Positions 11,013 to 62,735 of a stretch of DNA of 64,000 nt are shown here, piece after piece (position 1 is the first letter of the stretch; each line of letters opens with the position of its first letter). The notes beneath the pieces are model-generated. The model was not told the origin of the DNA and did not search any database. It saw nothing but the letters and a program-made list of their open reading frames with translations. The translations under genes and the position numbers were made by a program. Source of the DNA: Myxococcota bacterium (lineage in GTDB: Bacteria; Myxococcota_A; UBA796; CAJQPC01); the NCBI GenBank assembly GCA_036012755.1, contig DASCPX010000014.1, positions 32,001 to 96,000 on the forward strand. The letters run 5' to 3'.

Positions 11013-11989
11013 ATGCTGCTCATCAGCCTCTTCGCCTGCACCCAGACCGAGACTCCCACCGACAACGCCACCGAGCCGACGCCGGCCAAGGACGAGATCG
11101 TCGAGTTCGGTCCCGGGACCGGCAGCTTCAGCGCCGAGACCGCCTCCACAGAGGCCCTCGTCGCCCTGGGCTCGACCATGGCGGACATGATGGAAGACGA
11201 GGGCGTCCGTCGCTTCTTCGAGGACGGGGGGGTACCACCTCGTCGCGCCTCCTCCGAGCGAGGAGCGCTGCGTCACCGCCAGCTTCGACAGCGGCGACAT
11301 CGTGCTCGACTACGACGCCTGCGAGGACGCCGCCGGTCAGCTCACGCTCTCGTGGGAAGGCGAGGGCACGGTCACGGGCACGTGGTCAGAGGACTTCCAG
11401 GTCGGGGACCAGGCACTCTCCGGCACCCTCGCGATCCAGCTGTATGACGGCGCCGTCCGCCTGGAGCGTCGACGGCATCGTCGCCAGCGGTCCCAACGAG
11501 GCCCTCGAGGCCGACTTCGACTGGAGCCTGGCTGTCGACAGCACAGGCCTGACGATCGACGGCAGCTGGTCGAGCGAGGTCGTCCAGACCGATGGCGCCC
11601 CCTACGCCAACGAGCTCGACATCGTCGGACTCACCTGGAGCTTCACCGACCCGTGCCGCTGCCCCACCGCCGGCGACATCAGCCAGGTCCTCGTCGCCAC
11701 GCTGGAGACCGTGACCATCGACTGGGACGACTTCATCAACCTGGGCGACGGCAGCGACGACTTCGAGCCCCAGGAGATCGACATCGAGGACGTCGACGTC
11801 ACCGTGGAGAGCCTCGTGAGCTTCTCCAGCTGCAGCGCCACCGTGACCGTGGACGCCGACGACGTCGAGATAGTGCTGCCCAAGGAGGAGACCGGGCTGC
11901 CGATCGACCTGACCGTCACCCTCCCCGCCTCCGCCACCGCCGACGCTCTCGAGGCGGTGCTGCAGGCCGCTCTCGACGGGATGTGCTAG
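11013..11989 (+). CDS. Acidic beta-rich putative lipoprotein split by two +1 frameshifts (G7 at 11226-11232 and about 11455-11458)
   Basis: GGAG then MLLISLFAC. Coherent protein continues through three frames: ...FFEDG / GYHLVAPPPSEERCVTASFDSGDIVLDYDAC...QLYDGAV / AWSVDGIVASG...ALDGMC*. Confidence 0.65.
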
Positions 11990-12075
11990 CCGGCACGCCC
12001 CGCTCTCGCGGCGGGTCGGGCTCACAGTCGGCCATGGGATACTCGATTCTCATGGCCGACTTCGAGATCTGAGCC

Positions 12076-13812
12076 TTGATCTGGCAGCTGATCACCGTGG
12101 GCCTCGCCATCGGCGGGGCCGTTGCCTGGAGGCGGCTGCGGCACGTGCGCTTGCCCGGCCCGACCTGGGCCTGGGAGGTTGGATCCGTCGCGGCTGCGGT
12201 CCTGTTGGCGGCGGTTCCGCTGATACTGGCGTGGCTGTCGCTCGCCCCGACGCGGGCTCCGATGGGCCCGGATTCGAGCAACTACCTGGGCTGCGCGCTG
12301 GCCTTCGAGACCGGCCGCTGGGAGCTCTACTTCGACGACCGCTACCCGGCCTACCCCTACCTGGTGGCGCTGTTCGCGCGGGGTGGCCCCTCTGTCCCCA
12401 CCACGGGAACCGCCCTGAGCATGGCGCTGACCGCCCTCACGGCGCTGCCGCTCTACGTGGTGGGCCGCCTGCTCGCGGGACGGGTGGCCGGAATCGGCGG
12501 CGCGGTGCTGGGACTGCGCCAGGCCGTCGTGCTGGACGCGGGCCGCACCTTCACCCACTACCCGCTCTCGGGCCTGCTCGATGCGGGTCTGCTCGCGGCG
12601 GGCATCGGGCTGGCCCGCACGGGCTCGCCCTGGTGCGCTTGGGGCCTGGCCAGCCTGGCTGGGATGGCCATCGCGGCGGACCCCAAGCAGCTGCCCCTCG
12701 CCATGGCCACCCTGTTGGTCGCAGTCGGCTTCGGCCTCGTTCGGCCTCGCCCGTACTGGCAGCGTGCCCAGCTCGTCCTCGCGGCGCTGCTGCCGTTGCC
12801 GGTCACCCACTGGCTGGTCGGACGCTACCGACTCGGGCTGTTGAGCCTGGAAGGCATCGCGGTGCGAACGCCCATGAACTTCGTAGAAGACCTGAGCCCG
12901 CACATGGAGGAGGGCTTCGCCCTGGGAGAGCCCGGAGCGCTCGGCGAGCTGGTGTCCAGCTACTCGCGCGTGCTGGGTGCCGTAGCTCCAAAGGGGGATG
13001 GCCTGGACCCCTCCTTCTTGAACGCGCTGCCCATGCACTTCCCCTCCACCAGCCCGCTCTGGGCCCTGCTCCTGCTCCTGCTGCCCGCCGCCCTCCTCTG
13101 GCGCCGCGAGGTCTGGCGCGTGGGAGCGCTGCTGCTCGTGCTGCTCCAGGTGGCCGCGGCCTCCTCTGTCATGCGCTTGCACTATGCGCATCGCTATGCG
13201 CTCCCTCACCTCGAGCAGGTGCCGGTCGTCGCGCTCGCAGGGGTCTCGCTGGCGGCCGGACCACTGGCGGCGGCAGGCCTCGCCGCCGGTTGGCTGCTGC
13301 CAGGCGCGCCGATGAGCGACCTCGACAACAGCTACCAGTCCAGACAGGCGCAGCACACCGACAACTGGGTGGGGCGCGAGGTCCCAGCCGAGCTGTACGC
13401 CGTGCAGTGGACCGACAAGTACCTGGAGGCCGACGCCGTCATCTACGACATGAGCGGGCAACGGCCCATGCCCATCCTGGCGGCGAGCCGCGAGTACGTC
13501 CGCTGCACCGCCACCCACGACACCTGCGGCCAGGCGATGAGCACCGCCACCACTCCGATCGTCGCGCTCGTCTGGGCCGACGACTTCATCAGCGGTCAGC
13601 TGCCCTCCGGCCCGCGGGAGACCATCACGATGGATACCGGCCACATGCCAACCACGCTGGGAGACTGCTGGAGCCTCCTCACCCATCCGCAGCCAGGGTC
13701 GGGCCTGTACTCCTGGACCTGCACGGAGCGTCCTGACCCATGGCCCGATGTGCGGCACGCGCCCAGGGCTCCCTCGTGGAAGGGTGCTGGAGAGTCCGAG
13801 GGCCGGCCCTAG
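12076..13812 (+). CDS. Polytopic membrane protein, GT-C (ArnT/PMT, family 39-like) glycosyltransferase
   Basis: Many TM segments, early loop GPDSSNY, YPAYPYLVAL, ADPKQ, HRYALP, periplasmic C-terminal domain; start (TTG) uncertain. Confidence 0.6.
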   Translation: MIWQLITVGLAIGGAVAWRRLRHVRLPGPTWAWEVGSVAAAVLLAAVPLILAWLSLAPTRAPMGPDSSNYLGCALAFETGRWELYFDDRYPAYPYLVALFARGGPSVPTTGTALSMALTALTALPLYVVGRLLAGRVAGIGGAVLGLRQAVVLDAGRTFTHYPLSGLLDAGLLAAGIGLARTGSPWCAWGLASLAGMAIAADPKQLPLAMATLLVAVGFGLVRPRPYWQRAQLVLAALLPLPVTHWLVGRYRLGLLSLEGIAVRTPMNFVEDLSPHMEEGFALGEPGALGELVSSYSRVLGAVAPKGDGLDPSFLNALPMHFPSTSPLWALLLLLLPAALLWRREVWRVGALLLVLLQVAAASSVMRLHYAHRYALPHLEQVPVVALAGVSLAAGPLAAAGLAAGWLLPGAPMSDLDNSYQSRQAQHTDNWVGREVPAELYAVQWTDKYLEADAVIYDMSGQRPMPILAASREYVRCTATHDTCGQAMSTATTPIVALVWADDFISGQLPSGPRETITMDTGHMPTTLGDCWSLLTHPQPGSGLYSWTCTERPDPWPDVRHAPRAPSWKGAGESEGRP

Positions 13813-14990: not shown

Positions 14991-14997
14991 GACACCC

Positions 14998-15003
14998 AGG
15001 ATA
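14998..15003 (-). promoter_or_regulatory. Putative -10 hexamer TATCCT, 7 nt before GTG 14990
   Basis: Recurrent motif. Confidence 0.4.
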
Positions 15004-15052
15004 GCCCCGGGTTCCAGACCACCGACAGGATTGACGCGGGTTAGACGGGGAC

Positions 15053-15244
15053 ATGAGCTGGCCCATCGGAAAGACCTGGCACATCGGTGCCCGAGGGATC
15101 GTCGTGGCCGAGGCGCGGGCCTACGCCGCCGCCACCGGGGACGACAACCCGGCCTACGAGGAGGGCATCGCACCGCCGATGCTGCACGTGCGGCTGATGC
15201 GGCCCTTGTTGTGGGGCATCGCCCGCGTGGCCTTCCGAGCATGA
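15053..15244 (+). pseudogene. Truncated MaoC/hotdog dehydratase N-terminal fragment (63 aa)
   Basis: ARAYAAATGDDNPAY...APPMLHV resembles the MaoC-family N-terminus; it ends in an ATGA overlap with the next gene. Confidence 0.5.
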
Positions 15245-16467: not shown

Positions 16468-16482
16468 AGCGCCTCGACCTCG

Positions 16483-18684: not shown

Positions 18685-18692
18685 CTCGAGGG

Positions 18693-19940: not shown

Positions 19941-19993
19941 GTCACGTTTCTATCCCGAGCGGCGGACAAGATCTGACCGCGGCCCGCGCTCGT

Positions 19994-19999
19994 TAGTCT
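19994..19999 (+). promoter_or_regulatory. Putative -10 hexamer TAGTCT, 6 nt before GTG 20006
   Basis: Recurrent motif. Confidence 0.4.
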
Positions 20000-20005
20000 G
20001 GAGAT

Positions 20006-21067
20006 GTGCCACGCATCATCGACAAGCTGGACGCAGCCGCCGGACGCACCCCCGTTTTCCTCGACCTCGGGATCGACTATTCGACGCCGCGACCGGGCCC
20101 GAAGGCGCTGATCAAGCCCGACGGGACCTACGAAGCAGGCTGGTTCCACGACTTCGACGGCGACTGGAACCTGGACGACAGCTCTGCCTTCGACATCGCC
20201 CTGCAGCGCTGGGTCCACCTCACCTTCGACGCCCCCGATCACTTCATCGTCTGCAACCTCGCGAACCTGACGCGGGCGAGCAACACGGCGCTCCTGGTCG
20301 CCAACAAGCGCACGGGCGAGTTCCACCACGCCAGCCTGACCCACCTCTACCCCCAGGACACGGTCAGGGTGGAGCCCCCCTTCACCCACTGGCGCGACTC
20401 GGAGACCGGCAGCTTCGTGCGCATCGGGGACGACCTCTCCGTGGAGCTGGCGATCAACGCCGACGGCCTCCACTTCGTGGCCACGGCGCGCCACGCCCTC
20501 GGCCCCCCGCTGATCCAGGCCAGCCGCTTCCAGCGAGGCCGCGGAGCCATCCAGTGGTACCGGATCCTGGAGCTGGAGCGAGGGCTGTTGGCGGTCGGCG
20601 ACCGGGTCGTCGAGCTGCCAGCCGGCACGATGGGGACCTGCGACCGCACCATCGGGCACCAGCGCGGGGTGCAGGCATGGAACTGGGTGGCCGGGGTCGG
20701 CACCGCCGTGGACCTCGAGACCGGCGAGCGCACCCGGCTCGGTGTGCAGATCGCCAAGGACCGCCACCTCGCGCGGCCCCAGGTTCCGAACAAGAAGTAC
20801 CTGATCTGGACCGAGGATCGGCTCTTCAAGCTCGGCGAGGTGGACTTCTCCTACGAGCACGGCAGCGACTGGCGCATCCACGGGGATGACCTCGACTTCC
20901 GCTTCGTCCCCGCCTTCCACCGCCACGAGGAGAAGCGGCTGGTGCTCGTTCGAGCCGACTTCCACCAGTTCTACGGGGAGCTCTCGGGCACGGTGCGCGT
21001 GGGGGGCCGTCGTCTCCGACTCGAGCCCTGCTTCGCCGTGACCGAGGAGTCGCTGCTCGAGCTGTGA
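20006..21067 (+). CDS. Hypothetical protein, DUF2804-like beta-rich protein
   Basis: GC3-rich ORF; WNWVAG and DFHQFYGELSGTV...AVTE resemble DUF2804. Confidence 0.6.
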   Translation: MPRIIDKLDAAAGRTPVFLDLGIDYSTPRPGPKALIKPDGTYEAGWFHDFDGDWNLDDSSAFDIALQRWVHLTFDAPDHFIVCNLANLTRASNTALLVANKRTGEFHHASLTHLYPQDTVRVEPPFTHWRDSETGSFVRIGDDLSVELAINADGLHFVATARHALGPPLIQASRFQRGRGAIQWYRILELERGLLAVGDRVVELPAGTMGTCDRTIGHQRGVQAWNWVAGVGTAVDLETGERTRLGVQIAKDRHLARPQVPNKKYLIWTEDRLFKLGEVDFSYEHGSDWRIHGDDLDFRFVPAFHRHEEKRLVLVRADFHQFYGELSGTVRVGGRRLRLEPCFAVTEESLLEL

Positions 21068-21516
21068 TCACCTTCTTGATCGCCTGTTCGCAGAGCTGCC
21101 CCGAGGGCGGCGTCGACCCGGCGCGACAGGCGGGCCTCGAGGCGATGGGCGAGCCCCTCGGCGAGGTCTGCTTCGGCGACCGGAACGTGCTCATCGGCGA
21201 GGTCATCGTCTTCGACGCCGCATGGGACGACCCCTCGCTCGTCGCGAAGGGCGAGCACCTCCTCGCCCACCGAGCGATGTCCGAGCCCGAGCCTGGCAGC
21301 CCGGAGTGCCTGGAGTCGTGGATCGCCTACGAGACAGAGGGCTGGACCCGTGAGCTCGAGAGGCGCCGGGGCCTCGGGTTGCCGGCGATCTACCCCTTCG
21401 AGGCCGGCTGGCGGGACTCCACGGTGTCGATCCGGGACTGGCTGGTGGAGCATCCAGAGGGGGGGAGCGGCGTCGATCCCCTCTTGGCCAGCTACGAGGA
21501 GCGCTGCAAGGAGTAG
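21064..21516 (+). CDS. Putative lipoprotein (150 aa)
   Basis: GTGA overlap with the upstream gene; MITFLIAC; HLLAH segment. Confidence 0.7.
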   Translation: MITFLIACSQSCPEGGVDPARQAGLEAMGEPLGEVCFGDRNVLIGEVIVFDAAWDDPSLVAKGEHLLAHRAMSEPEPGSPECLESWIAYETEGWTRELERRRGLGLPAIYPFEAGWRDSTVSIRDWLVEHPEGGSGVDPLLASYEERCKE

Positions 21517-21539
21517 ACTTGCGTCAACCGGAGGCAGCC

Positions 21540-21959
21540 GTGTTCCAACTCCTCATCCCGCTGGCCTTCGCCGACGCGGTCTCCTTCGACTCCAGCCTCG
21601 ACTGCCCGCGCGGGAGCACGATCACCGCCTCCCACATCGGCAGCTGGTGCCTGCCCAACGAGTGCGACGCGAACGAGTGCAACGAGGGGGCATGTGTCGC
21701 GGACGTCGGGCTCTGCGTCACTCGGGAAGAGGTCGCCTGCGGGGGCCGGGTCGCCGACTCCGCCGACTGCACCTTCGAGAAGGTCGAGGCCCACAAGACC
21801 TGCGACGAGCAGAGCGACTGCACCACCGGCACCTGCGAGACCGCCGACCGCTGTGCGACGGCGAAGCAGCGGGCCTGCGGAGGCTGCGCGACGACCGGCG
21901 CCGTCGGGCTCGGGGCGCTCCTGCTGGCCTTCGCGGGGGTCCTGAGGAGGAGGTCGTAA
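21540..21959 (+). CDS. Small Cys-rich secreted protein with MYXO-CTERM-like anchor
   Basis: GGAGG before GTG; short signal; many Cys; C-terminus GGCATTGAVGLGALLLAFAGVLRRRS. Confidence 0.75.
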   Translation: MFQLLIPLAFADAVSFDSSLDCPRGSTITASHIGSWCLPNECDANECNEGACVADVGLCVTREEVACGGRVADSADCTFEKVEAHKTCDEQSDCTTGTCETADRCATAKQRACGGCATTGAVGLGALLLAFAGVLRRRS

Positions 21960-22351: not shown

Positions 22352-22690
22352 TCAGAACAACACGAGCCCCACGGCGAAGCTGAGCGCGTTCGCGACCAGG
22401 GCCACCGTGAACCCGGCCTTGAAGCCGAGCTTGCCCCAGTGGCCGATGATGAGGCCTTCGATCAGCACCACGGAGGCCTCGATCAGCGCCAGTCGGGCGT
22501 AGGGATCCCAGTGAAAGAGGTCCTGGTTGACCGTCCAGGCGAAGGGATGGGTCAGAAGCGTCACGGCCGGAAGGACCAGGAGCAGCCGGCGCCAGTTTTG
22601 CACCTCGAAGCGCGCCAGCTTCACGAGGCCCACCGCGACGGGGACTTCTACGGCGAGGCTGATCAGGAGCGCGAGGAGCTGGTCACTCAC
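22352..22690 (-). CDS. Small integral membrane protein (112 aa)
   Basis: Four hydrophobic segments; LTHPFAW, IEASVVLIEG, ANALSF. Confidence 0.75.
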   Translation of the reverse strand: MSDQLLALLISLAVEVPVAVGLVKLARFEVQNWRRLLLVLPAVTLLTHPFAWTVNQDLFHWDPYARLALIEASVVLIEGLIIGHWGKLGFKAGFTVALVANALSFAVGLVLF

Positions 22691-23366
22691 CCGCGACGGT
22701 CATCAGGTAGGCGCTGCCGCAGTCGGCGTTGGCGATGGCACCGACGACGACCTCGTAGACACCGCCGTCGTCCGGACCGCTGGAGTCCTCGAGGACCAGC
22801 GAGACCGTGCCCGAGCCGAAGTCCTCGTCGACGAGTCCGAGCTCCTCCGAGCCATCGGTCGACAGGCGGTTCACTGTCAGCTTGTAGGTTGCGTTCGCCG
22901 GGATGTTGGCCAGGGTCACGGTCACTGGAAAGGCGTCGCCGTACCAGTTGTCCTCGACGTAGAAGCTGAAGCGGTCGTCGTCCGCGTTGTTGTGCAGGAA
23001 GGCCACGGCCGCGTGCCCGGAGGTGGCCTCCAGCGTGCCCAGGTCATGGGGATCGTCGTCGTTGGGCTCGTAGGGATCCTCGTCCACGGCGTCCTCGTCG
23101 AGCTCGCCGTCGCAGTCGTCGTCGTCGCCGTCGCAGGTGTCGGTGGCGCCGGGGCGGACGCTGCTGTCCTCGTCGTCGCAGTCCCCTTCGTTCTCGCTCC
23201 AGCCGTCGCCGTCGTCGTCCCTGTCGAGGGGGTCCAGCTGCTCGCCGGTGTCGCCGGTGTCACCTGGGCTCGCGCTGTCGTCGGCCGGAGTGGGGTCATC
23301 GCCGCCGGAGTCGACGAGCCCTCCAGAGGCCGAGAAACCGCACGACAGCAGCGACATGAGCACCAT
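22683..23366 (-). CDS. Putative lipoprotein with DCDD (MopE-like putative metal-binding) motif and PPC-like C-terminal domain
   Basis: MVLMSLLSC; DDDGDGW...GDCDD...PGATDTCDGDDDDCDG; DPYEPND. Confidence 0.78.
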   Translation of the reverse strand: MVLMSLLSCGFSASGGLVDSGGDDPTPADDSASPGDTGDTGEQLDPLDRDDDGDGWSENEGDCDDEDSSVRPGATDTCDGDDDDCDGELDEDAVDEDPYEPNDDDPHDLGTLEATSGHAAVAFLHNNADDDRFSFYVEDNWYGDAFPVTVTLANIPANATYKLTVNRLSTDGSEELGLVDEDFGSGTVSLVLEDSSGPDDGGVYEVVVGAIANADCGSAYLMTVAGE

Positions 23367-34797: not shown

Positions 34798-35768
34798 CTC
34801 CACCGCTGTCGGTGGCACCGATGATGGAGCGCACGGACCGCCACTTCCGGGTGCTCCTGCGTCAGGTCACGCGGCGATGCCTGCTCTACACGGAGATGGT
34901 CGTGGCCCAGGCCATCCTGCGTGGAGATGCCAGGCGCCACCTGGAGTTCTCGGACATCGAGCACCCGATCTCGCTGCAGCTCGGAGGCGACGACCCGGCC
35001 ATGCTGGCCGAGTGCGCCAGGGCTGCCGAGGGCTTCGGCTACGACGAGGTCGACCTCAACGTCGGCTGCCCCAGCGACCGAGTCCAGAGCGGACACTTCG
35101 GTGTCTGCCTCATGGCCACCCCAGAGCTCGTCGCCGACTGCGTGCGCGCGATGAAGGAGGCCTGCTCGATGCCGGTCACGGTCAAGCACCGCATCGGCTT
35201 CGACGAGCAGGACACCTACGAGCAGATGCTGCGCTTCGTCGACACGGTCGCAGAGGCCGGGTGCGACCGCTTCACGGTGCATGCGCGCAAGGCCTGGCTG
35301 CAAGGGCTCTCGCCGAGAGAGAACCGCGAGGTCCCGCCCCTGCGCTACGAGGACGTCTACCGACTCAAGCGCGAGCGACCCCAGCTGGCCGTCGAACTCA
35401 ACGGCGGCGTCACGACGCTGGATGCCGTGGAGGCCCACCTCGAGATGGTCGACGCCGTGATGCTCGGCCGCGCCGCCTACGACGACCCGATGCTGCTGTC
35501 CACCGCCGACAGCCGCTTCTTCGGAGGAGACGACCCGGGCCTCTGTCGCGTCCAGATCGTCGAGGCGATGGCTGCCTACGCCTCTGAGAGGATCGACGCC
35601 GGTGACCGCCTGGGGCACGTCGCGCGCCACCTGCTGAACCTCTTCCACGGCAGACCCGGGGCCCGCAAGTTCAGGCGCCACCTCTCTCGGCACGCGCACA
35701 GACCAGGGGCCGGCGCCTCCGTCCTGCTGGACGCGCTCGAGCTGATCCCGGCTACTGCATCCGGTTGA
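34794..35768 (+). CDS. dusA: tRNA-dihydrouridine(20/20a) synthase
   Basis: SVAPMM, YTEMV, LQLGG, LNVGCPSDRVQSGHFG, VKHRIG, HARKAWLQGLSPRENREVPPL, MLGRAAY. Confidence 0.93.
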   Translation: MTPPLSVAPMMERTDRHFRVLLRQVTRRCLLYTEMVVAQAILRGDARRHLEFSDIEHPISLQLGGDDPAMLAECARAAEGFGYDEVDLNVGCPSDRVQSGHFGVCLMATPELVADCVRAMKEACSMPVTVKHRIGFDEQDTYEQMLRFVDTVAEAGCDRFTVHARKAWLQGLSPRENREVPPLRYEDVYRLKRERPQLAVELNGGVTTLDAVEAHLEMVDAVMLGRAAYDDPMLLSTADSRFFGGDDPGLCRVQIVEAMAAYASERIDAGDRLGHVARHLLNLFHGRPGARKFRRHLSRHAHRPGAGASVLLDALELIPATASG

Positions 35769-36222
35769 AGGGGAAGGTGTCCACTTCGTAGCCGATGCGT
35801 TGGTAGGCGAAGCCCACAGCGAGGTAGGCGGCGCCTGTCCCGACGATGGCTCCTGCGACCCCGCCGAGGAGCGCTGGGCGGATGCGCTTCGGCAGCGTCG
35901 CGTCCGTCCAGCCGTGGCGGTAGCCGTTGGAGTACTGCCAGGTCTGCTCCCCATCCTCCGAGTCGCTCGGGCCCCTGATCGAGTAGGCGACCGAGGTCGA
36001 CATCGCTCCCGCGACGATGCAGGGAGAGGCAAGGCAGGGACCCACGAGGGTCGTTCCGAGAGCGGCCGTCCCGAACCCGGCGGCGAAACCGACGAGCCCG
36101 GGGCGACCGCGGGGCTTGGCCTCGGCGGCGTCGTAGCCGGCGTGGTAGCCCAACTGGTATGGGCTGGTCGTTTCCACGCTCGGCTCCGACCCCCGCGCGA
36201 GGCCGGCCAGCAGCAGGATCAC
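35752..36222 (-). CDS. Hypothetical membrane/exported protein
   Basis: GTGA overlap with the upstream gene; hydrophobic Gly-rich segments. Confidence 0.62.
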   Translation of the reverse strand: MILLLAGLARGSEPSVETTSPYQLGYHAGYDAAEAKPRGRPGLVGFAAGFGTAALGTTLVGPCLASPCIVAGAMSTSVAYSIRGPSDSEDGEQTWQYSNGYRHGWTDATLPKRIRPALLGGVAGAIVGTGAAYLAVGFAYQRIGYEVDTFPFNRMQ

Positions 36223-37706
36223 TTCCGCCGCCTGGAGAGAAGGGCGAACCCGAGGAGTCCTGCCAGGCCGGCCAGCCCTGTCCCGGAAGAGGCCGCCAGC
36301 GTGCTGCATCCGGCCATCGGGATCAGGCCCCACTTCGGGTCGGGTGCGGGGCCGTACTCACAGCTCCCGGGGTCCGGGGCCCAGCCCTCTCCACAGATGG
36401 GGAACTGGTCCTCGAGGTAGGGCGCGTAGTCGATGAAGCGGATCTGGTCGTTGCTGTAGAGACCAGAGGTGTAGAGCACCAGGTCCTGGTCGACCGCCTC
36501 GGGCGTGTAGCGCATGTGGATGCGGCTCACGTAGAACTCGGGGGCGATGCCCCACCAGCCCGTGTCGTTGGACTGTTCCCGGTCGAGCCTGAAGCCCAGG
36601 GCCTCGATGGTCTCGTCGGGCAGGGGATCGTAGTCCTCGCCCGGGGCCTGGGTCGGCGCGCCGCTCGGGAAGAGCTCCGGCGCCGGGCAGGGGTCGCACT
36701 TGAAGGAGGTCGCGCCAGGCTGCATCCACGAAGGCGTCACGGCCCAGCCGTACTCGGCGACCCAGGTGAAGCCATCTGACTCTTCGAAGGCCAGGTCGAA
36801 CTGGTGGTTGTAGTAGTCCGCGAAGCTGTCCCACTCGTCGGTGCGCAGGAGGCACTCGTCATCGATGACGGCGCGAGGGTAGTTCGCGATGCCGACCTGG
36901 CCATCTTCGTAGGGCGTGACCGTGTAGACGATGAGGTCCTGCTCGCCGCCGGAGTTCAGCGTGCCGAGCCGGATGGGCAGGGAGAAGCCCTCTGACATGT
37001 AGGAGATCTGGATCGGGGAGAGGTTCGTCATGCCCGCCGGGACCGCCTCGAGGCTGACCTTCGCCGCGAGGAAGCTGGAGCCGCTGGCGATGTAGGAGCC
37101 GAGCACCTCTTCTGCGTGCTCTCCGACGGAGTAGCCGTTGGCGTCGAGCCAGGACATCAGGCCCTCGCCGTCATCTGCGGACACGAGCACGAACTCGTAC
37201 TCGCCAGCGGCGAACTCGGCCTCGACGGTGACGGCGGAGTCGGCCTCGTCCGAGGGAACCGCCGCGACGCTGCCGCCCATCCCCATGTCGGAGTTCGCCA
37301 TGGTGGAGTCCGAGCAGCCGCCGAGGGTCGCGAAGGGGAGCGCGAACAGCGGCGTGTGGCCCTTCGTCGACTTGGTCTCGATGCGCTCCCAGCCGCCGTA
37401 GTCCGCGCACTCGTACTGCACGAGGCGGGGGCCGCTGTAGACCTCGACCGTGCGGACGAGGTGGGTCTCGACGACCCGCACGTCCTCTGGCTGGAGGTCC
37501 GAGGGGACCGGGATCACGAAGGCGAAGTCGGAGAGCTCGCCCTCGTAGTCGTTGACCATCGTCAGGGTGGTCCGACCGTTCTGACGCGCGATGGCCAGCT
37601 GGCTCGCGCTGTTGGTGAGGTCGGCGCCTGCCTGGCCGATGTAGGTGCCGCAGAACGCTTCCGCTCTCGGCGACAGCGCCGCTAGGACGAGGGAGATACT
37701 CATCAT
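36219..37706 (-). CDS. DUF2330 domain protein with MYXO-CTERM-like anchor
   Basis: AEAFCG, LTMVNDYEG, FAFVIPVP, WLDANGY, LPIRLG, EYGW, CDPC; C-terminus AGCST...GFALLSRRRK. Confidence 0.85.
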   Translation of the reverse strand: MMSISLVLAALSPRAEAFCGTYIGQAGADLTNSASQLAIARQNGRTTLTMVNDYEGELSDFAFVIPVPSDLQPEDVRVVETHLVRTVEVYSGPRLVQYECADYGGWERIETKSTKGHTPLFALPFATLGGCSDSTMANSDMGMGGSVAAVPSDEADSAVTVEAEFAAGEYEFVLVSADDGEGLMSWLDANGYSVGEHAEEVLGSYIASGSSFLAAKVSLEAVPAGMTNLSPIQISYMSEGFSLPIRLGTLNSGGEQDLIVYTVTPYEDGQVGIANYPRAVIDDECLLRTDEWDSFADYYNHQFDLAFEESDGFTWVAEYGWAVTPSWMQPGATSFKCDPCPAPELFPSGAPTQAPGEDYDPLPDETIEALGFRLDREQSNDTGWWGIAPEFYVSRIHMRYTPEAVDQDLVLYTSGLYSNDQIRFIDYAPYLEDQFPICGEGWAPDPGSCEYGPAPDPKWGLIPMAGCSTLAASSGTGLAGLAGLLGFALLSRRRK

Positions 37707-39973: not shown

Positions 39974-40951
39974 CTACTCCAGGCAGTGCCCGTCGAGCCC
40001 GACGCCGAGGTAGTCCTCGATGACGTGCTCCTTGGCGTACATCAGCTCCTTGATGCGCTCTCCCTCGACCGAGAGCTTGGGCTCGTGGTCGGCCCACGAC
40101 AGGAAGAAGTGGGTGCGCAGCCAGAGATCCCTGACGACGTCCTGGAAGGGGGGCTCGGAGATGCGGGCGTAGACCGCCGGCTCCTCCTCCTTGGCCTCCT
40201 CGATGTAGAGCGCGATGAAGTACAAGAACGCAGTGGGACCGTCGACGGCGGAGGTGCCCCAGGGCATGTCCTCGGCGACCACGGTCAGCGCGCCCAGCCC
40301 GTTGACGTAGCAGTTGGTCTCGTCGAGCAGCTCCACCCAGCCGTAGGTGCCCTGCTGACCCGTCAAGTAGAGGTAGTAGAGCGAGGTGGCGTCTCCCTCG
40401 ACCCGGTCGTAGATGCGAGAGCGCGCGAAGCCGTCGTACCAGGGGGTCTGGGGCTTGAGGTCCCGCAGAAACCAGTAGCGGAAGTAGCCCCCGCTGCCGC
40501 CCAGGCTGTTCTCGTAGTCCCAGCCGTGCACCGTCTCGTGCACGACCGTGCCGAGGCTGTCGACGAAGACACCCCAGCTGCTCGTCTCGGTGAAGATGTC
40601 GATGTAGGGATCGTGCGACTGGGCATCGATGAGATGCGCCGCGGACTGGAAGCGTCGATCGAAGAGCTCCTCCAGCATCGAGCGGGCGTTGCCGGCCGAA
40701 AAACCGGCCTTCAGATCCGAGATGTCCGCCTGGGGCTCGAAGTGCTCGTCCCAGCAGTCGTCGTCGATCGGAACGTCCGTGTCGGTGTCCGGCTCGTCGG
40801 TGTCGTCGGTGTCGTCGGTCTCTGGCGTGCCAGTGTCGAATCCGTCCACGCCCCCGGTGTCTTCGGAGCGATCGGGCCGAGCAGGCGGACGAGGCCTCTC
40901 GATGGGGGCGAGGTTGGTCTCCGTGCAGGCGAGCAGGAGCAGTGTAGACAT
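39974..40951 (-). CDS. Putative lipoprotein with HExxH (zinc metallopeptidase-like) domain
   Basis: MSTLLLLAC, D/T-rich linker, VVHETVH and a downstream LLDETNCY. Confidence 0.7.
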   Translation of the reverse strand: MSTLLLLACTETNLAPIERPRPPARPDRSEDTGGVDGFDTGTPETDDTDDTDEPDTDTDVPIDDDCWDEHFEPQADISDLKAGFSAGNARSMLEELFDRRFQSAAHLIDAQSHDPYIDIFTETSSWGVFVDSLGTVVHETVHGWDYENSLGGSGGYFRYWFLRDLKPQTPWYDGFARSRIYDRVEGDATSLYYLYLTGQQGTYGWVELLDETNCYVNGLGALTVVAEDMPWGTSAVDGPTAFLYFIALYIEEAKEEEPAVYARISEPPFQDVVRDLWLRTHFFLSWADHEPKLSVEGERIKELMYAKEHVIEDYLGVGLDGHCLE

Positions 40952-47915: not shown

Positions 47916-50900
47916 ATGATCCTGGCACTGCTCCTGGCCTGCGGCGAAAAGGACACCACCTCGGACAGCGGCGCCGCCGACAACGACGGGGACGGCGTCC
48001 TCGCCGCCGACGACTGCGACGACGACGACAGCGCGCTGGGTGCTGTCGAGGACGACAACGACTGCGATGGGGCCCTCGCCGAGGACGACTGCGACGACCA
48101 GGACGCCACCAGCCATCCGGGCGCCGACGAGGACTATGGCGACGGCGCCGACAACGACTGCGACGGAGGGGTGGACCGCGGCGAGTCGACCTGTTCCGCG
48201 CTGCTGACCCTCAGCGACGAGACCGATACCAGCGCCCAGGACTTCTGTGACTCCTGGTCGTTCGACGCCACCTTCGAGTACACGGCAGACGCTCGCCCCG
48301 AGATGACCAGCTTCGCACTCGAAATGAAGGCGGCCGAAGGCGGCACCTGCAAGTTCACGCTCGACCAGACCGAGCTCTGTGGCGAGGGCTACTACCTCCA
48401 GGGAGAGGGCGAGTCCGGCGCGCTGCTCGCCACGACCGTCTCCTGCGCCGACTTCAGCGGCTCCGCCGCCTGGACCGGAGAGGGCTACGTGCGGATCGAC
48501 GACGTCAACGAGGGCATCGCCGCCGGCGTGGGCGCGTCGACCCCGCACAAGATGGGCCTCAGCGCGTACCTGGCTGTCGAGGGCGACGACGGGATGGCCC
48601 TCGAAGGCGACATCGTCTTCGAGGCGACCCAGCTGGGGACCGAGATGGCATCGACCGGGTGCGCGGTGAGCGACGGCGACGAGGACGACGACGGCAGCAT
48701 CGATGTGGTCTACGACGGGGACGACTGCGACGACGACGACCCCCTGACGGCTCCCGGAGCGGCCCCCAACGACGACGCGACGGCCTGTATGACCGACGCC
48801 GACGAGGACGACTGGGGGGACCCCGAGCCCGACGGCGACGCCGAACCCGGAACGGACTGCGACGATGCCGACGCCGAGGTGTACTTGGGTGTCGCGGAGA
48901 ACGAGCCGGAGCTCTGTACGCGGGACAGCGACGACGACGGCTGGGCCGACGCAGGCGCGCAGGAGCCTCTCGAGGCCGGCGACGACTGCAACGACGAGAA
49001 CGCGGACGAGTACCCGGGCGCGGTGACCGAGGCCTCCGCCGACCAGTGCATGACCGACATCGACGGAGACGGCTTCGGCGACGCCTTCGCGACCGGCTTC
49101 TACGACGCAGGCACGGACTGCGACGATGGCGACGCCGACGTCTACATCGGCTCCGCCAGCGAGGAGCCGGAGCTCTGCGCTCTGGACGTCGACGGGGACG
49201 GATGGGCCGACGGCGCGGCCTCGAGCCCCTACGACGCGGGCAGCGACTGCAACGACGCGGACGCGACCGAGTACCCGGGCGCCGTGGCAGAGGCGACGGC
49301 TGGCGAGTGCATGAACGACACGGACGCGGACGGCTACGGCGACGACAACCCGGGTGGCCTGTACGACGTCGGCACCGACTGCCAGGACGGCAACGACGAC
49401 ATCTTCCCGGGGGCCGCAACCAAGGAGCCGACGCTCTGCGCTCGCGACAGCGATGGCGACGGCTGGGGCACGTGTTCCGGCGCCAGTGGCTTCGACGCGG
49501 GCACCGACTGCGACGACAGCGACGCGACCACGTTCCCCGACTGGGCGGGCGAAGACGGCGGCTGCGTGCAGGACCTGGACGGCGACGGCTACGGCAACAT
49601 CACGGCGCCGACGTCCAGCAGTTGTTGGGACGCCGGCACCGACTGCGACGACGGCGACGACACGGCGTACCCGGGCGCGGCTTCGGCGGAGTCCACGCTC
49701 TGCACCATCGACGCCGACGCCGATGGCTACGGCGACGACACGTTGAGCTCACCGGTGGACGCCGGCACCGACTGCGACGACAGCGACGACAGCGTCTGGC
49801 CCGACCAGCCCGGCCTGGACGTGGCGGACGGTGTCGACCTGGACTGTGACGGGAGCGACTTCGAGAACGACGCCGAGAACGACATCGCCGAGTTCGGCTT
49901 CGAGATGGACACCACGACGTCCGGCAGCGGGGACACCTACCTGGGGACGTGGCTCGAGGTCGGCGACTGGGACAACGACGGCGCCGACGACCTCTACATC
50001 GGCGGCAACGGCGACCACACGGAGGCCTCCATCGGCTTCATCGTCACCGGCCCGATCTCGAGCTGGGACGCGGACATCTACAACGCCAGCACCTCGCACG
50101 AGGAGCGGACCATGGGCACGGCGATGGGCGACATCGACGGCGACGGGAACACGGACTTCGGAGTCCGAGGCTGGATGTCGACCGGTGACTACGGCGCGGT
50201 TTGGCTCGGCCCGGTGACGGCCACGCTCGACGCGGCCACCGCGGACTTCGTCCTGGATGAGGGCGGCGACTACGACTGCTTCTGGAGGTTCGGCACCAAG
50301 GCGGACGAGGACCTGCAGTTCGGGGACGTCGATGGGGACGGGCAGGACGACCTGATCGTCGGCAGCCCCATGTGGAACCACGAGTGCAACGGCGGAAGCG
50401 GCGTCTGGCGCGGCGCCGTCCAGATCACATACGGGCCGATCTCGACCGACGTGACGCTGGACGACTCGGACGTGATCCTCGTCGGCGACAGCTACCCCGA
50501 CACGTACGGCTCGCGCCCTCGGGTGGTGGACGACCTGGACGGCGACGGCATCGACGATGTGGTCAGCGGCTCGTCGCGGGGCGGAGTCCTCCATGTCCTG
50601 ACGAACATTTCGAGCCTGTCGACGGGCGCGCTCGACACGGAAGCCACTCTCGCCGTCGAGCTCGGCCCGGGGACCCGTACGGTGGCCTGTGGCGCCGGCG
50701 ACTGGGACAACGACGGGTTCGGCGACGTCCTGCTGACGGAGGCCTACGGCACAGCCGAGCTGATCCTCGGGCAGACGACGCTGACGAGCACGAGCCACGT
50801 CGACTTCGAGATGGGCTCGGGCAGCGGGGCCCTGGGCAGCGGCTGCGCAGGCGGCGGCGACTTCGACGGAGACGGCAAGGACGACGTCGCCTTCCAGGCT

Positions 50901-51137
50901 GGCTACGACACGGCGTACCTGGTGTACGGCGGCGTGTCGGGCACGCTAGACGTCGACACCGACTCCGACGTGGTCCTGACCTGGTCGGGCTACCCGCTCT
51001 ACAACGGCTACGAGGGTCGACCCATCGCGTTCGGCGACTTCGACGCGGACGGGCTGGACGACCTGGTCATCGGCACGCCGTACGCGGCCACCAGCAGCGA
51101 CTACCACGGGGGCACGGTCGTCGTGTACGGCCAGTAG
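47916..51137 (+). CDS. Large acidic surface lipoprotein with DCDD (MopE-like) repeats and C-terminal FG-GAP propeller
   Basis: GGAG then MILALLLAC; tandem DxDGDG..GTDCDD units; several GDxDGDGxDDL motifs. Confidence 0.88.
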   Translation: MILALLLACGEKDTTSDSGAADNDGDGVLAADDCDDDDSALGAVEDDNDCDGALAEDDCDDQDATSHPGADEDYGDGADNDCDGGVDRGESTCSALLTLSDETDTSAQDFCDSWSFDATFEYTADARPEMTSFALEMKAAEGGTCKFTLDQTELCGEGYYLQGEGESGALLATTVSCADFSGSAAWTGEGYVRIDDVNEGIAAGVGASTPHKMGLSAYLAVEGDDGMALEGDIVFEATQLGTEMASTGCAVSDGDEDDDGSIDVVYDGDDCDDDDPLTAPGAAPNDDATACMTDADEDDWGDPEPDGDAEPGTDCDDADAEVYLGVAENEPELCTRDSDDDGWADAGAQEPLEAGDDCNDENADEYPGAVTEASADQCMTDIDGDGFGDAFATGFYDAGTDCDDGDADVYIGSASEEPELCALDVDGDGWADGAASSPYDAGSDCNDADATEYPGAVAEATAGECMNDTDADGYGDDNPGGLYDVGTDCQDGNDDIFPGAATKEPTLCARDSDGDGWGTCSGASGFDAGTDCDDSDATTFPDWAGEDGGCVQDLDGDGYGNITAPTSSSCWDAGTDCDDGDDTAYPGAASAESTLCTIDADADGYGDDTLSSPVDAGTDCDDSDDSVWPDQPGLDVADGVDLDCDGSDFENDAENDIAEFGFEMDTTTSGSGDTYLGTWLEVGDWDNDGADDLYIGGNGDHTEASIGFIVTGPISSWDADIYNASTSHEERTMGTAMGDIDGDGNTDFGVRGWMSTGDYGAVWLGPVTATLDAATADFVLDEGGDYDCFWRFGTKADEDLQFGDVDGDGQDDLIVGSPMWNHECNGGSGVWRGAVQITYGPISTDVTLDDSDVILVGDSYPDTYGSRPRVVDDLDGDGIDDVVSGSSRGGVLHVLTNISSLSTGALDTEATLAVELGPGTRTVACGAGDWDNDGFGDVLLTEAYGTAELILGQTTLTSTSHVDFEMGSGSGALGSGCAGGGDFDGDGKDDVAFQAGYDTAYLVYGGVSGTLDVDTDSDVVLTWSGYPLYNGYEGRPIAFGDFDADGLDDLVIGTPYAATSSDYHGGTVVVYGQ
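48660..49860 (+). repeat. About nine tandem ~43-aa Asp/Cys-rich repeats within the CDS
   Basis: Unit C-x2-D-x-D-x-DG(W/Y/F)...GTDC(D/N)D...(Y/F)PGA, counted from the translation. Confidence 0.8.
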
Positions 51138-51140
51138 CCG

Positions 51141-52028
51141 TCAGCTCGGGGGAGTCAGGACCCCGGTCCCAGAGCTATCGGTACCCCAGCAGGCGATGGC
51201 GTCGTCGCCCTCGACGCCGCAGGCGTGGTCCCAGCCGACACCGACCGCGCGGAGACCGGAATCCGGCGGATCTCCAATGCCGTCACTGGCATCGCCCCAA
51301 CACGTCGCGATGCCGGCGTCGTCAACAGCGCAGGAGCTGTCCATGCCGGTTGCGACCTCTGTGAAGCTGCCGGTCGGAGGCTTGGCCTGTTCGTAGTTGT
51401 CGCGGCCCCAGCAGGCCACGGAGCCGTCGCTGGACTTCACGCCGCAGCCGGTACGAGAGCCGATGTCGATCTCGTCGAACTGGCCGGAGGGCGCGTCAGC
51501 GGACTCGCCGGAGCCACCCCAGCAGGTGATCGTCTGGCTCGGCGCGAGGCCGCAGCTCACCCCGTCGCCAGCGCTCACCGCTACGAGCTTGCCCGAGGGG
51601 GCGCTCGTCTCGCCGAAGCTGTCGGCGCCCCAACAGTCGACGTGCATATCGGAGTGCAGGGCGCACGCGTGGCCGGTTCCCAGATCGATGTCGTCGTATC
51701 CGTCGCCGCCGGGTGCACCATCGAGGGCGGCGCCCCAACAGTGGACCAGCCCGTCGACGTCGAGGCCGCAGGTGCTGGATCCGCCGGCTGAGATCCGGCG
51801 GAGCTTCACGTCCGGAGGCGTGGACTGACCGTCGCTGTCCGAGCCCCAGCACTTCGCGGTGCCGTCGGTCTCGAGGAGGCAGTTGTGCTGACTGCCCACG
51901 GCGAGGCGCCGTCGGTTCAGGAGGGTGTCGTCGGGCACGGAGTCATCGGTCGACTCGGAGTCCGTCCCGGAGTCCGGCGTGACGATGCCACCGATCTCGC
52001 CCACACACGCAAGCAGCAACAAGACCAC
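51141..52028 (-). CDS. RCC1/BLIP-II-like repeat lipoprotein
   Basis: AGGAGG then MVLLLLAC; repeated G..H.C......CWG units. Confidence 0.85.
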   Translation of the reverse strand: MVLLLLACVGEIGGIVTPDSGTDSESTDDSVPDDTLLNRRRLAVGSQHNCLLETDGTAKCWGSDSDGQSTPPDVKLRRISAGGSSTCGLDVDGLVHCWGAALDGAPGGDGYDDIDLGTGHACALHSDMHVDCWGADSFGETSAPSGKLVAVSAGDGVSCGLAPSQTITCWGGSGESADAPSGQFDEIDIGSRTGCGVKSSDGSVACWGRDNYEQAKPPTGSFTEVATGMDSSCAVDDAGIATCWGDASDGIGDPPDSGLRAVGVGWDHACGVEGDDAIACWGTDSSGTGVLTPPS

Positions 52029-52177
52029 GATTCACCTCCTCGCACACCGCGCCGGGATCTCATACGCGCTTGGGAGCGCACCCGCGAGTCAGCTGGCCTC
52101 GGGATCGCTCGAAATGACCGATCGGAGCATCGTGGCGCCGTGGTCGTGCGGGATAGGGATCGCGGCAGGAGGACGAC

Positions 52178-53098
52178 ATGTTGATCCTGTTCCTGGCCTG
52201 CGCAGAGATCGAAGGAGACGACCCCGGCGAGTGCGTCGACCGAGCGGACAACGACGCGGACGGGCTCTTCGATTGCGACGACGATGGCTGCGTGGGCAGC
52301 CCTGACTGCACCGGAGAGGCGGACGCGGACACGGATGCAGACACGGACAGCGACACGGACGCGGACGCGGACAGCGATACGGACGCGGACACGGACACGG
52401 ACACGGACACGGACACGGACGCGGACGCGGACGCGGACGCGGACACGGATGTGGGCATCGCCTCGCTGAAGGGCACAGTGCTCGTCGGGATCATCACGAC
52501 TCCGTTCCAGTTCGCCCTCACCGCGGACGACGACAAGATGACCTACGACGGCTGGTTCGACGTCGACGAATCGACCACCGTGATCCTCGACGGGGGTCCC
52601 TGGATACTGGGCGTGAACCCGTCCTGGCCGGACGCCGCCATCGAGTACCGGTGCGAGAACACCGAGGGGGTCGCGCGCCAGATGGACCTCCCCGACCTCT
52701 TCGGCGATGCTGGCTGGCACCACCTCGCCGTAGAGCTGACTCGGGACGACGCGATCGTCTGGCTCGACGGTGAAGTCGCGCACACGGGCAGCTTCGACTG
52801 CCACCTCGACGCCACCTCTTCCCAGTACGACTTCGACCTTGGTGACGGCCAGGGCACCCTGGGCATGGACGAGCTCCGAGCCACCCACGGAGAGCTGTTC
52901 AGCGGGAGCTTCACCCCCGACTACCCCCTGACCGTCGACTCCAAGACGGTCTTCCTCTGGCGCGTCACGTCAGACGACTCGGGAGGCGAGAGCGAGGGCG
53001 ACTCGGCCGCGGGTCAGAGCCTCACGGACCACGCCGGCAACTCAGTCACCGGCATCATCGACGAGGGCCTGTGGTCAGAGGCCCGCGCGACCGACTAG
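52178..53098 (+). CDS. Lipoprotein with DA/DT linker and LamG/concanavalin-like domain
   Basis: AGGAGG then MLILFLAC; DNDADGLFDCDD; GWHHLAV...VWLDG...MDELR. Confidence 0.8.
   Translation: MLILFLACAEIEGDDPGECVDRADNDADGLFDCDDDGCVGSPDCTGEADADTDADTDSDTDADADSDTDADTDTDTDTDTDADADADADTDVGIASLKGTVLVGIITTPFQFALTADDDKMTYDGWFDVDESTTVILDGGPWILGVNPSWPDAAIEYRCENTEGVARQMDLPDLFGDAGWHHLAVELTRDDAIVWLDGEVAHTGSFDCHLDATSSQYDFDLGDGQGTLGMDELRATHGELFSGSFTPDYPLTVDSKTVFLWRVTSDDSGGESEGDSAAGQSLTDHAGNSVTGIIDEGLWSEARATD
52322..52450 (+). repeat. Degenerate hexamer array GAC(A/G)CG encoding (DA/DT)n
   Basis: Read directly from the sequence. Confidence 0.9.
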
Positions 53099-53117
53099 CA
53101 GGAAGGTCACCGACCGG

Positions 53118-54020
53118 TCAGAGCCCCGCGGTCCCCGTGAACGTCATGGTGCAGGGGTCGTTGTAGGGGATGGCGCAGGCGCCCTCCGGGATGTAGTTCA
53201 CCGTGCCGGTGACGTCGAAGCCCGCGCCGGTGGGCGTGAACAGGAACTCGTCCACCCACCCCACCTCGCAGTCGGTGCCGTTTCCTTCGAAGCTACCGGT
53301 CCCGTAGGCCTCGACGCCGTCGCCTGTAGTCAGCAGGGGGTAGGTCGCCTCCCCAGCGTCGCCGGCGAGCACGCCGTTGAGGCACTCGCCCACCCGCATG
53401 ACGAGGAGGGTCCCATCCGCGCTCCCGTTCGGGTAGGTGGTGCAGTCGTTCGTCTGCTCGAGGTCGAGCACCCAGAGCCCCTCGGACATCGTGACCTCTT
53501 CGGCGTCCTGTCCCGTCACCGGCCAGTGGATGTCGAAGCTCCCCGCCAGGGCATGACCGCCCTCGGCTGCGAGCGCGTAGGACCCCTCGATGTCGACGAA
53601 GAGCTTCTCGTTGGTGAAGTTCCCGGTCTTGTCGCCAGCGGAGGCGTCGGTGATCACGACCTGGCCGCTGTCCATCCACCACTCGCCCTCGAGCCCGTCC
53701 GGCACCCCGGTGCAGTCGTAGCTGAGGAAGGCCGCCGCGCCAGCGTGGTTGACCTCGTAGGTGTTGACCCCGCACACGGCCTCGCGGTGGATGTACAGCG
53801 AACACTCGAAGCCCACCTCGTCCACCGCGTGCAAGGTCAGGTCGAAGGACCGGACCTTCGGCGCGTCGTCCGGGTCGAACTCCATCGTGGCGTCGAGGTC
53901 GACGGCCGCGCAGAGATCGAGGTTCAGGATGGTGCCGTCGGCCAGGATGCCGTCCAGGCTCGCCGAGCAGGTGCGCTCGTCCTCGTACTTGTTGCAGGCA
54001 GTCAGGAGGAGGATGAGCAT
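53118..54020 (-). CDS. Putative lipoprotein, Cys-containing beta-rich domains
   Basis: GAGG then MLILLLTAC; the N-terminal domain is homologous to a segment of the 47916 protein. Confidence 0.78.
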   Translation of the reverse strand: MLILLLTACNKYEDERTCSASLDGILADGTILNLDLCAAVDLDATMEFDPDDAPKVRSFDLTLHAVDEVGFECSLYIHREAVCGVNTYEVNHAGAAAFLSYDCTGVPDGLEGEWWMDSGQVVITDASAGDKTGNFTNEKLFVDIEGSYALAAEGGHALAGSFDIHWPVTGQDAEEVTMSEGLWVLDLEQTNDCTTYPNGSADGTLLVMRVGECLNGVLAGDAGEATYPLLTTGDGVEAYGTGSFEGNGTDCEVGWVDEFLFTPTGAGFDVTGTVNYIPEGACAIPYNDPCTMTFTGTAGL

Positions 54021-54060
54021 CTGGACCTCGGCTCGGAAGAGTGTCGCGCGTCGGGAGTAT

Positions 54061-58626: not shown

Positions 58627-58635
58627 CGCGCGATG

Positions 58636-59718: not shown

Positions 59719-59794
59719 GAGTGGTCAAACCCGCCTGGGCCGCGTTGCACGTGGCTGGGGCCCGTGCCAGATTAGCCCGTCTGTCGGAGACCCC

Positions 59795-60079
59795 ATGCGC
59801 CAGCTCGCCGTCGCGATCATCATCGTCTCGGGCCTCACGGCTTGCGGAAACGCCTGCCAGGACACCTGCAAGGAGCTCACGTCCTACGCAGAGGACTGCG
59901 GCTACGTCGTGAACGAAGAGGAGGTCGATAAGTGCATCGACGACTTCTCGAGGGCCAACACCACGGCCGAGGAGCGCGACCACTGCAAGGAGTTCGTCGA
60001 CAACGTCAGCGACGAGTGGAGCTGCCAGGAGGCTGCCCGCTACATGGGCGTGGAAGCGGGCGGCGGAGGCGGGGAGTAG
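59795..60079 (+). CDS. Small Cys-rich lipoprotein (94 aa)
   Basis: GGAG then MRQLAVAIIIVSGLTAC, a canonical lipobox; CQDTC plus further Cys. Confidence 0.75.
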   Translation: MRQLAVAIIIVSGLTACGNACQDTCKELTSYAEDCGYVVNEEEVDKCIDDFSRANTTAEERDHCKEFVDNVSDEWSCQEAARYMGVEAGGGGGE

Positions 60080-60119
60080 TGCTCGAAGCCCTCATCCGGT
60101 AGCATCTCGCGCGGAGAGC

Positions 60120-62024: not shown

Positions 62025-62033
62025 GCTTCACGC

Positions 62034-62735
62034 TCACTGGCCCCCGCCGACGACATCGATGTGAACACAGCGGCCTTGCTCGCGAGCTCTCTCGACGAGA
62101 GGTCCGAACTCCGCCGAATCAAAAGCCTGGACTCGCCCCGGCAGGGCACCCTCGCAGCGGAGCTTCCGGTTCTCGATGAGCTCGTCGAGCACGGCGCGGT
62201 AGTGCGTCTGCACCGCTACCAGGCACGGCTCCGGGTGGAGCGCCGATGTACAGAGCGATGAAGAGAGATCGAGCCTTGGCGCGAGCGCCCGGAGATAGAG
62301 GTCCGGCCAGTCACTGTCGGGCAGTTCAAAAGGGGTGAGTTCGTTGATGATCTCGTTCTCGAAGCGCCCCGGAAGTCCATCGGCCCCATCCAACCGCTCA
62401 ATGACCTCGAAGGCGAGGTGGTTACGGCAAGGAGGCGCGTAGTCTCCCGCGTCGGCGCACCACCGCGCTTCGCCGCTGCGCTCGGCGACGACAAAGAAGC
62501 ACTCCTCGCGGTGGAATCCCGTGAGCTCCCCGCACAGCGTCGCCGCCGCTTCCGAGTCACTCTGCGACACCGTGCCAACGACACTCCACACACACTCGGA
62601 CCGTCCCAAGTTCGCGCCGATCTGGAGGCAGGTCTCCACGGCGGCTGCAGGGTCCTTGCTGGCCTGTAGTAGCGCTATCTGATCGAGCTCAGCATCGGAT
62701 GGAGCCGACCAACAGGCACTCAGCAAGCCGATCAC
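62034..62735 (-). CDS. Putative Cys-containing lipoprotein
   Basis: GTGA overlap; MIGLLSAC; spaced Cys in helical repeats. Confidence 0.7.
   Translation of the reverse strand: MIGLLSACWSAPSDAELDQIALLQASKDPAAAVETCLQIGANLGRSECVWSVVGTVSQSDSEAAATLCGELTGFHREECFFVVAERSGEARWCADAGDYAPPCRNHLAFEVIERLDGADGLPGRFENEIINELTPFELPDSDWPDLYLRALAPRLDLSSSLCTSALHPEPCLVAVQTHYRAVLDELIENRKLRCEGALPGRVQAFDSAEFGPLVERAREQGRCVHIDVVGGGQ

Follow-up and report, generated by a model that had tools for sequence, protein, structure and literature searches.

Nine genes in a 64,000-nucleotide stretch of a bacterial genome assembly (G000:C14:32001-96000; the whole stretch is called the window below) encode lipoprotein-like proteins that begin with an uncharged hydrophobic leader so short that the putative lipidation Cys lies at residue 8 or 9. 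Leaders of this kind precede about one gene in eight of the genome (6.73 Mb, 68% G+C, 96% complete; no 16S rRNA in the assembly). The observation is real, large and lineage-restricted: the trait has a patchy distribution inside one Myxococcota-like order and went undetected in 257 genomes elsewhere in the phylum. The short signals are not members of the canonical lipoprotein class, since length and charge both fail and the strict lipobox is found in a minority; judged from their sequences, they most likely work like canonical lipoprotein signals.

Nine short-signal genes in the window

The first-pass annotation had pointed out nine N-termini, and all of them match the DNA at their positions, with no Lys, Arg, Asp or Glu before the Cys. 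The Cys is residue 9 in the products of 11013..11989 (+), 22683..23366 (−, with a MopE-type repeat), 39974..40951 (−, 325 residues), 47916..51137 (+, 1073 residues, with MopE and FG-GAP repeats) and 53118..54020 (−, 300 residues). It is residue 8 in those of 21064..21516 (+, 150 residues), 51141..52028 (−, with RCC1 repeats), 52178..53098 (+, 306 residues) and 62034..62735 (−, 233 residues). The gene at 59795..60079 (+), which serves as an internal control, carries a canonical lipoprotein signal with Arg2 and Cys17, as had been described.

A Shine–Dalgarno sequence (SD) is found at 11013 (GGAG, 6 nt upstream), 47916, 52028 and 52178 (both AGGAGG) and 54020, while the starts at 21064 and 62735 lie in GTGA overlaps. 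Together these make seven, the number that had been called fixed; a GAGG just 3 nt upstream of 23366 would raise the count to eight. The start at 40951 has the weakest support of the nine, with neither SD nor overlap, and the sole nearby upstream GTG would add a Cys/Arg-rich stretch unlike a signal. No in-frame start exists upstream of 21064, 47916 and 62735. In addition, 52028, 23366 and 52178 are preceded at a distance of 1, 3 and 7 codons by in-frame stops, which cap the Cys at residues 9, 12 and 15, respectively, whichever start codon is used.

Pfam recognizes FG-GAP in the 47916 product and RCC1 in the 52028 product, as predicted, together with MopE in the products of 47916 and 23366. LamG, which had also been predicted, was not found, and six of the nine proteins match no family. 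A homologue search with the 54020 protein returned only itself.

Genome-wide abundance and reality of the starts

Genes were called with a self-trained caller that is blind to amino-acid motifs, giving 5,779 genes, 5,674 of them closed at the 5′ end. Short lipoprotein-type signals were defined as Met followed by 4-9 hydrophobic residues and [AGS]Cys, which places the Cys at residues 6-11. The genome-wide count proposed with the nine N-termini gives 743 matches (13.1% of the 5,674 genes), whereas internal start codons passed through the same filter as a chance control give 170 among 76,787 (0.22%). The Cys position peaks at residue 8. Sorted by Cys position, the lipobox filter yields 743 signals at 6-11, 72 at 12-14 and 155 at 15 or beyond. 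The peak is also visible without any filter: the first Cys falls at residues 7, 8, 9 and 10 in 190, 313, 231 and 160 genes, compared with 27-47 genes at each of residues 25-45. Likewise, 942 proteins open with an uncharged hydrophobic run, and 605 of these have Cys at residues 6-11, against 7% expected.

Upstream starts that would restore a normal-length signal are scarce. In 391 of the 743 genes there is no in-frame upstream start at all, a better-supported canonical upstream start exists in only six, and both kinds of start are supported in eight more. Irrespective of the start codon chosen, 129 genes are unable to exceed Cys13. The short start itself is marked by an SD, by coupling or by a TAnnnT box at −13 to −11 in 581 genes; the box alone is found at 123 short-signal genes and at 65 of the 76,787 internal starts. 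Throughout the genome, this leaderless-type box occurs in 444 of 5,674 genes, and it is enriched among the short-signal genes, at 16.6% versus 6.6% or, in another comparison, 5.2%.

Composition of the short signals

Lipoprotein signals of the canonical type average 16-26 residues and have an N-terminal region (n-region) of positive charge and the lipobox [LV][ASTVI][GAS]C (PMC8689077, PMC9360617). The signals described here have their Cys at 6-11, and those with Cys at 7-10 contain Lys or Arg before the lipobox in only 12 of 623 cases. By length, Lys/Arg occurs at residues 2-4 in 0/128, 2/242, 5/159 and 5/94 signals with Cys at 7, 8, 9 and 10, compared with 37% of 4,450 other genes (for these counts the lipobox was scored on its final three residues only). 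Its frequency climbs through Cys 12-15 and reaches 76-100% at Cys 16-24. Positive charge lies far below background in the short signals and is thus selected against there.

The hydrophobic region (h-region) is well developed, with 47% Leu and a mean Kyte–Doolittle (KD) value of 2.69, compared with 2.23, although this high hydrophobicity is partly built into the selection filter; the unfiltered first-Cys peak at 7-10 is independent of it. The residue before the Cys (−1) is Ala, Gly or Ser in 716 proteins with a first Cys at 7-10, the next most frequent being Leu with 43, and position −3 is Leu in 63%. Residue 2 is mostly of the kind that blocks Met removal. The short leaders lack Arg and do not resemble Tat signals, of which the whole genome has 12 candidates.

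Orthologues and distribution

The CpoB/YbgF protein of this genome has Cys8, and its gene is coupled to pal. In this one family, 70 homologues with public gene calls were compared, and 69 of them have the Cys in alignment; their source names read Myxococcota or Deltaproteobacteria, and the label Myxococcota is taken from these names. Thirty-five homologues have Cys at 8-10 and none of these is charged, whereas 34 have Cys at 12-24, of which 30 are charged. On a FastTree tree, the signal switches between the short-uncharged and canonical types at least seven times.

BamA was compared at 30 loci, several of which had starts outside the sequence stretch viewed. Its leader is short and uncharged in G000 (the genome of the window), G305, G301 and G242, all rich in short lipoprotein signals, and bears Arg in a number of genomes poorer in them, namely G307, G050, G339, G335 and G267.

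Distribution searches covered this phylum. With the fixed Cys8 pattern, 10 of 44 order genomes give 18-96 matches, and each of 14 further class and 243 further phylum genomes gives nine or fewer. Searching 127 order genomes with Cys7 and variable patterns, counts are high in genera of family f1 and in f5 and f6, and near background in parts of f2, f3 and f4. Values below about 3-fold over control carry much noise with the variable-gap pattern, as G287, an outgroup from the same class, reaches 2.9-fold yet has no short lipoprotein signal among 239 directly called genes. The same direct calls give 42/321 in G000, 11/155 in G350, 8/147 in G376, 1/282 in G067 (not firm) and 0/298 in G127.

Cargo and leaders without Cys

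Sixteen dense 20-kb regions provided a cargo sample of 114 of the 743 short-signal proteins. The families found among them include SBP_bac_5, multi-haem cytochromes c, YkuD (L,D-transpeptidase), M23, M16, M28, subtilases, sulfatases, CotH, FG-GAP, MopE and RCC1, and nearly all sampled proteins with a family are of extracytoplasmic types. The mature parts are acidic, and 2% of them contain a membrane segment, compared with 21% of other genes.

A second class consists of 326 proteins in which an uncharged h-region is followed by an Ala-x-Ala-like site of the signal peptidase I (SPase I) type, peaking at residues 10-11; 2% of internal starts pass the same selection. BamA, BamD and one LolA carry such leaders, and Pal is canonical. 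The BamD orthologue (L127, G000:C149:39842-40588) has no lipobox Cys and may here be a soluble periplasmic protein, to judge from its leader; CpoB, by contrast, is of the lipoprotein type. In G127, nine of 298 genes have candidate short uncharged SPase I-type signals, about six of them convincing by eye, compared with three weak ones among 239 genes in G287.

Export and lipidation machinery

The genome encodes a single SecA, SecY, YidC, LepB and Ffh. A loss of formylation was rejected as an explanation, since fmt, two def genes and map are present. The first-pass annotation had postulated a modified Sec system, and one candidate change was found, in SecY. Position 187 (E. coli numbering) is Ala or Ser in 26/26 order genomes and Ile or Met in 28/28 genomes outside the order (12 from the class, 16 from the phylum). 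In addition, position 192 is a small residue in 26/26 order genomes and Phe or Met in 27/28 outside. I187 belongs to the isoleucine pore ring (PMC2171872), and prlA alleles in the SecY ring let proteins with defective or missing signals through (PMC7530735, PMC3101351, PMC3164448). I187A/S thus lies in one of the regions (pore ring, plug or gate) where prlA-type substitutions are expected and is a candidate for such a change. It is insufficient by itself, as it is shared by members that have no short lipoprotein signals.

Other components of the pathway were examined as causes and rejected. SecA 235 is Lys or Arg in 14 of 15 genomes with high counts of short signals and in 2 of 10 with low counts (one of these an outgroup), a difference confounded by kinship, and all SecA columns that part high from low genomes are weak. 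The Ffh alignment has no column separating high from low genomes; as a separate observation, Ffh N381 (L308-L329) is Gln or His in most of 25 order genomes and Asn or Asp in outgroups. FtsY (L016, G000:C157:72737-73810) begins with a hydrophobic, membrane-anchor-like segment.

For lipidation there are five Lgt, two LspA, one Lnt and two LolA genes. A modified Lgt/LspA system, also postulated, gains no support from copy numbers, which do not track the trait. Counts overlap across 15 high, 3 intermediate, 11 low and 5 outgroup genomes (LspA 1-2 in high versus 1-3 in low; Lgt 3-5 versus 2-6), several high genomes have one LspA, and expansion was discarded as the cause. The LspA catalytic residues D123 and D141 are kept, and no column of its alignment separates high from low genomes.

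The five Lgt copies (including L194, L195, L004 and L005) fall into three classes. Two of them carry a His-Asp-His-Pro-Gly motif and Asp at E. coli positions 151 and 243; this His-Asp-His class occurs in 27/27 order genomes, high and low alike, and was rejected as the cause. The Lgt adjacent to lspA was rejected as the required enzyme, as it was not seen in G340, G341, G378, G252 and G376. The g5297 class, which has a long periplasmic-side insertion, is found in 17/17 high and intermediate genomes tested and in 6/10 low ones. It is at most necessary, because G067, G077 and G092 have the class yet no short signals. G127 combines A187 and several short uncharged SPase I-type leaders with a lack of short lipoprotein signals and of any match to the g5297 class. 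This pattern fits a two-step history, in which the translocon would have changed first and lipidation second.

A possible mechanism and its alternatives

Use of a minimal signal by the lineage, as had been proposed, is well supported by starts fixed through SD, coupling, leaderless-type −10 boxes and near stops, by a Cys that is kept across signal swaps, and by cargo that takes in periplasmic proteins such as CpoB, SBP_bac_5, multi-haem cytochromes c and an L,D-transpeptidase. We consider it likely that the route is Sec/SPase II in one form or another. In the explanation that we favor, to which the comparisons give about even weight, an uncharged mini-signal that becomes buried would lead proteins to export by Sec and to lipidation by Lgt, LspA and Lnt, the SecY change being the permissive cause. 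Leaders of 5-10 uncharged, Leu-rich residues plus Cys would pass through SecYEG, be diacylated by Lgt, cleaved by LspA and N-acylated by Lnt. A helix rises by about 1.5 Å per residue and a bilayer measures about 30 Å. Because 6-8 residues are too short for a bilayer-spanning helix, the N-terminus would be drawn into the lateral gate or the outer leaflet instead of being held in the cytoplasm. Lys and Arg may be depleted below background because a charge becomes a liability once the N-terminus is buried. Moreover, Leu at −3 disfavors LepB, so that cleavage before the Cys would be the task of LspA; the class without Cys, with Ala-x-Ala near residues 10-11, would go to LepB. The order-wide replacement of I187 by Ala/Ser and of F192 by a small residue might act as a natural prlA allele would, relaxing the proofreading of signals, and so have permitted repeated shortening, a part of the scheme that we regard as plausible but short of probable. 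The shortest lipoprotein signals would need a further, second step beyond the SecY change.

Several findings weigh against this explanation. Ala or Ser at SecY 187 is also present in order members without firm short lipoprotein signals (G127, G067), no SecY column in the alignment convincingly splits high from low genomes, and among 78 distant SecY proteins three have Ala or Ser and 18 have Thr at this position. Our literature search found no report of I187A as a prl allele. His at E. coli position 103 is kept in only one of the five Lgt copies; outgroups from the class and the phylum also frequently have Tyr at this position. The strict lipobox is present in 149/743 short signals versus 62/155 long ones, with −1 and Cys fitting, and −2 is a bulky residue in 532/743 (72%). 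One of the 114 sampled cargo proteins has a PPDK_N domain, normally of cytoplasmic type. In addition, the gene calls come from a custom caller, which overlooked the 11013 gene.

Another explanation keeps the same route and lipidation with ordinary machinery. Very Leu-rich mini-signals would be accepted by any SecYEG/SRP/YidC and Lgt/LspA and would have spread by drift, through new starts inside an old h-region and often on leaderless mRNA, the SecY change being an unrelated mark of the order. We judge this less likely, if quite possible. Neither SecY 187 nor LspA nor Ffh tells high genomes from low ones, SecA does so weakly and paralogue counts overlap; the short signals are also more hydrophobic and more often leaderless, as this account would have it. 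However, it leaves unexplained why the trait is confined to one order, with at most nine matches in any of the 257 other genomes, and has repeated origins inside it.

More doubtful, in our estimate, is a second topological mode of Sec. Here a SecY whose pore ring is widened would draw an uncharged and possibly still formylated leader of 6-9 residues entirely into its lateral gate, and a dedicated Lgt, one without His103, would receive it in the outer leaflet. Several families of the order would use this as their principal export code, one that n-region rules do not see.

It is unlikely that the proteins are exported but bypass the Lgt-LspA-Lnt sequence, either because the leader is retained and serves as a small hydrophobic anchor, or because a divergent, His103-less Lgt acylates the Cys and LspA does not cleave. 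The four Lgt copies without His103, the g5297 class in all high and intermediate genomes tested and its absence from G127, the atypical −2 residue of the lipobox and a residue 2 that mostly blocks Met removal would suit this account. Against it, −1 is strictly small, as LspA needs, orthologues swap canonical and short signals while keeping the same Cys and mature start, and the g5297 class is also found in six of ten low genomes (outgroup paralogues were partly sampled).

An artefact of start calling, with true signals beginning upstream through non-AUG starts, read-through or frameshifts in an error-prone assembly, is very improbable and already largely refuted: the 11013 gene is frameshifted and some upstream start giving Cys 13-35 exists in 175/743 genes, but an upstream start is lacking in 391 genes, a nearby in-frame stop leaves too little room in 129, SD, coupling and −10 boxes lie at the short start, the short starts recur in the public calls of 35 CpoB orthologues, and other genomes show the trait.

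Relation to known systems

The short signals share with canonical Sec/SPase II signals of the E. coli Lpp type a Leu-rich h-region, a small −1 residue, an invariant Cys, a disordered acidic/Pro tether, extracytoplasmic cargo and the presence of Lgt, LspA, Lnt and LolA. They differ in their 5-10 residues, in the missing positive n-region, in the predominance of bulky residues at −2 and in forming the majority class (743 versus 155). Canonical SPase I signals and the leaders without Cys have in common an h-region followed by Ala-x-Ala, on BamA and LolA and here also on BamD; here the n-region is lacking and the cleavage site lies near residues 10-11. Compared with the prlA alleles of E. coli, a pore-ring Ile is likewise replaced by a smaller residue, but the change is natural, fixed in a whole order and located at I187, with a function that is predicted only. 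Type IV prepilin and archaellin leaders are very short, charged and cut on the cytoplasmic side, and the h-region is kept after cleavage. The leaders studied here are similarly very short but, unlike those, are the h-region itself. No description of such short uncharged signals was found in the literature, with subscription journals and supplements outside the coverage, and the trait is unpublished as far as searched.

Bacterial signals are usually defined by their n-region and by a length that spans the membrane, and this clade would export most of its envelope proteins with neither. Should these leaders serve for export and attachment to lipid, as is likely, bacterial signal peptides could be shorter than the accepted minimum, since the leaders have half the textbook length. 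With natural substrates in the hundreds and a SecY ring variant found in nature, the minimal signal and ring proofreading become testable questions. Predictors built on rules may count too few secreted proteins in these uncultured bacteria, and such compact tags could serve lipoprotein display.

Other features of the window and the genome

Further exported-type proteins in the window also have short uncharged leaders: a trypsin-family protease (5531..6733, −) and two proteins with SPase I-type signals, one of 156 residues whose start lies in a GTGA overlap (35752..36222, −) and one of the DUF2330 family (36219..37703, −). The two SPase I-type examples chosen in the first-pass annotation proved weak. 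For the exported-type protein at 21519..21959 (+), the GTG start at 21540 competes with TTG 21519, which is preceded by an SD of its own and yields a leader containing Arg. At 33137, the hydrophobic leader belongs to a frame of only 46 codons (33137-33277), out of frame with the long open reading frame that ends at 34797. The frame of the 11013 gene is broken at a run of seven G (11226-11232) and resumes in that of the 11444-11989 open reading frame. Both 11226-11232 and 33137-33277 are probably frameshifts, either assembly errors or slippage sites.

Between 54061 and 59718, two paralogous genes (55758, −; 56981, −) begin with Cys-x2-Cys zinc-finger-like motifs and adjoin a radical-SAM-like gene (59718, −). 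Elsewhere in the genome, the protein encoded at G000:C59:94198-94863 has a C-terminus that resembles a MYXO-CTERM tag, made up of a Cys/Gly motif, then a hydrophobic stretch and finally a run of Arg.

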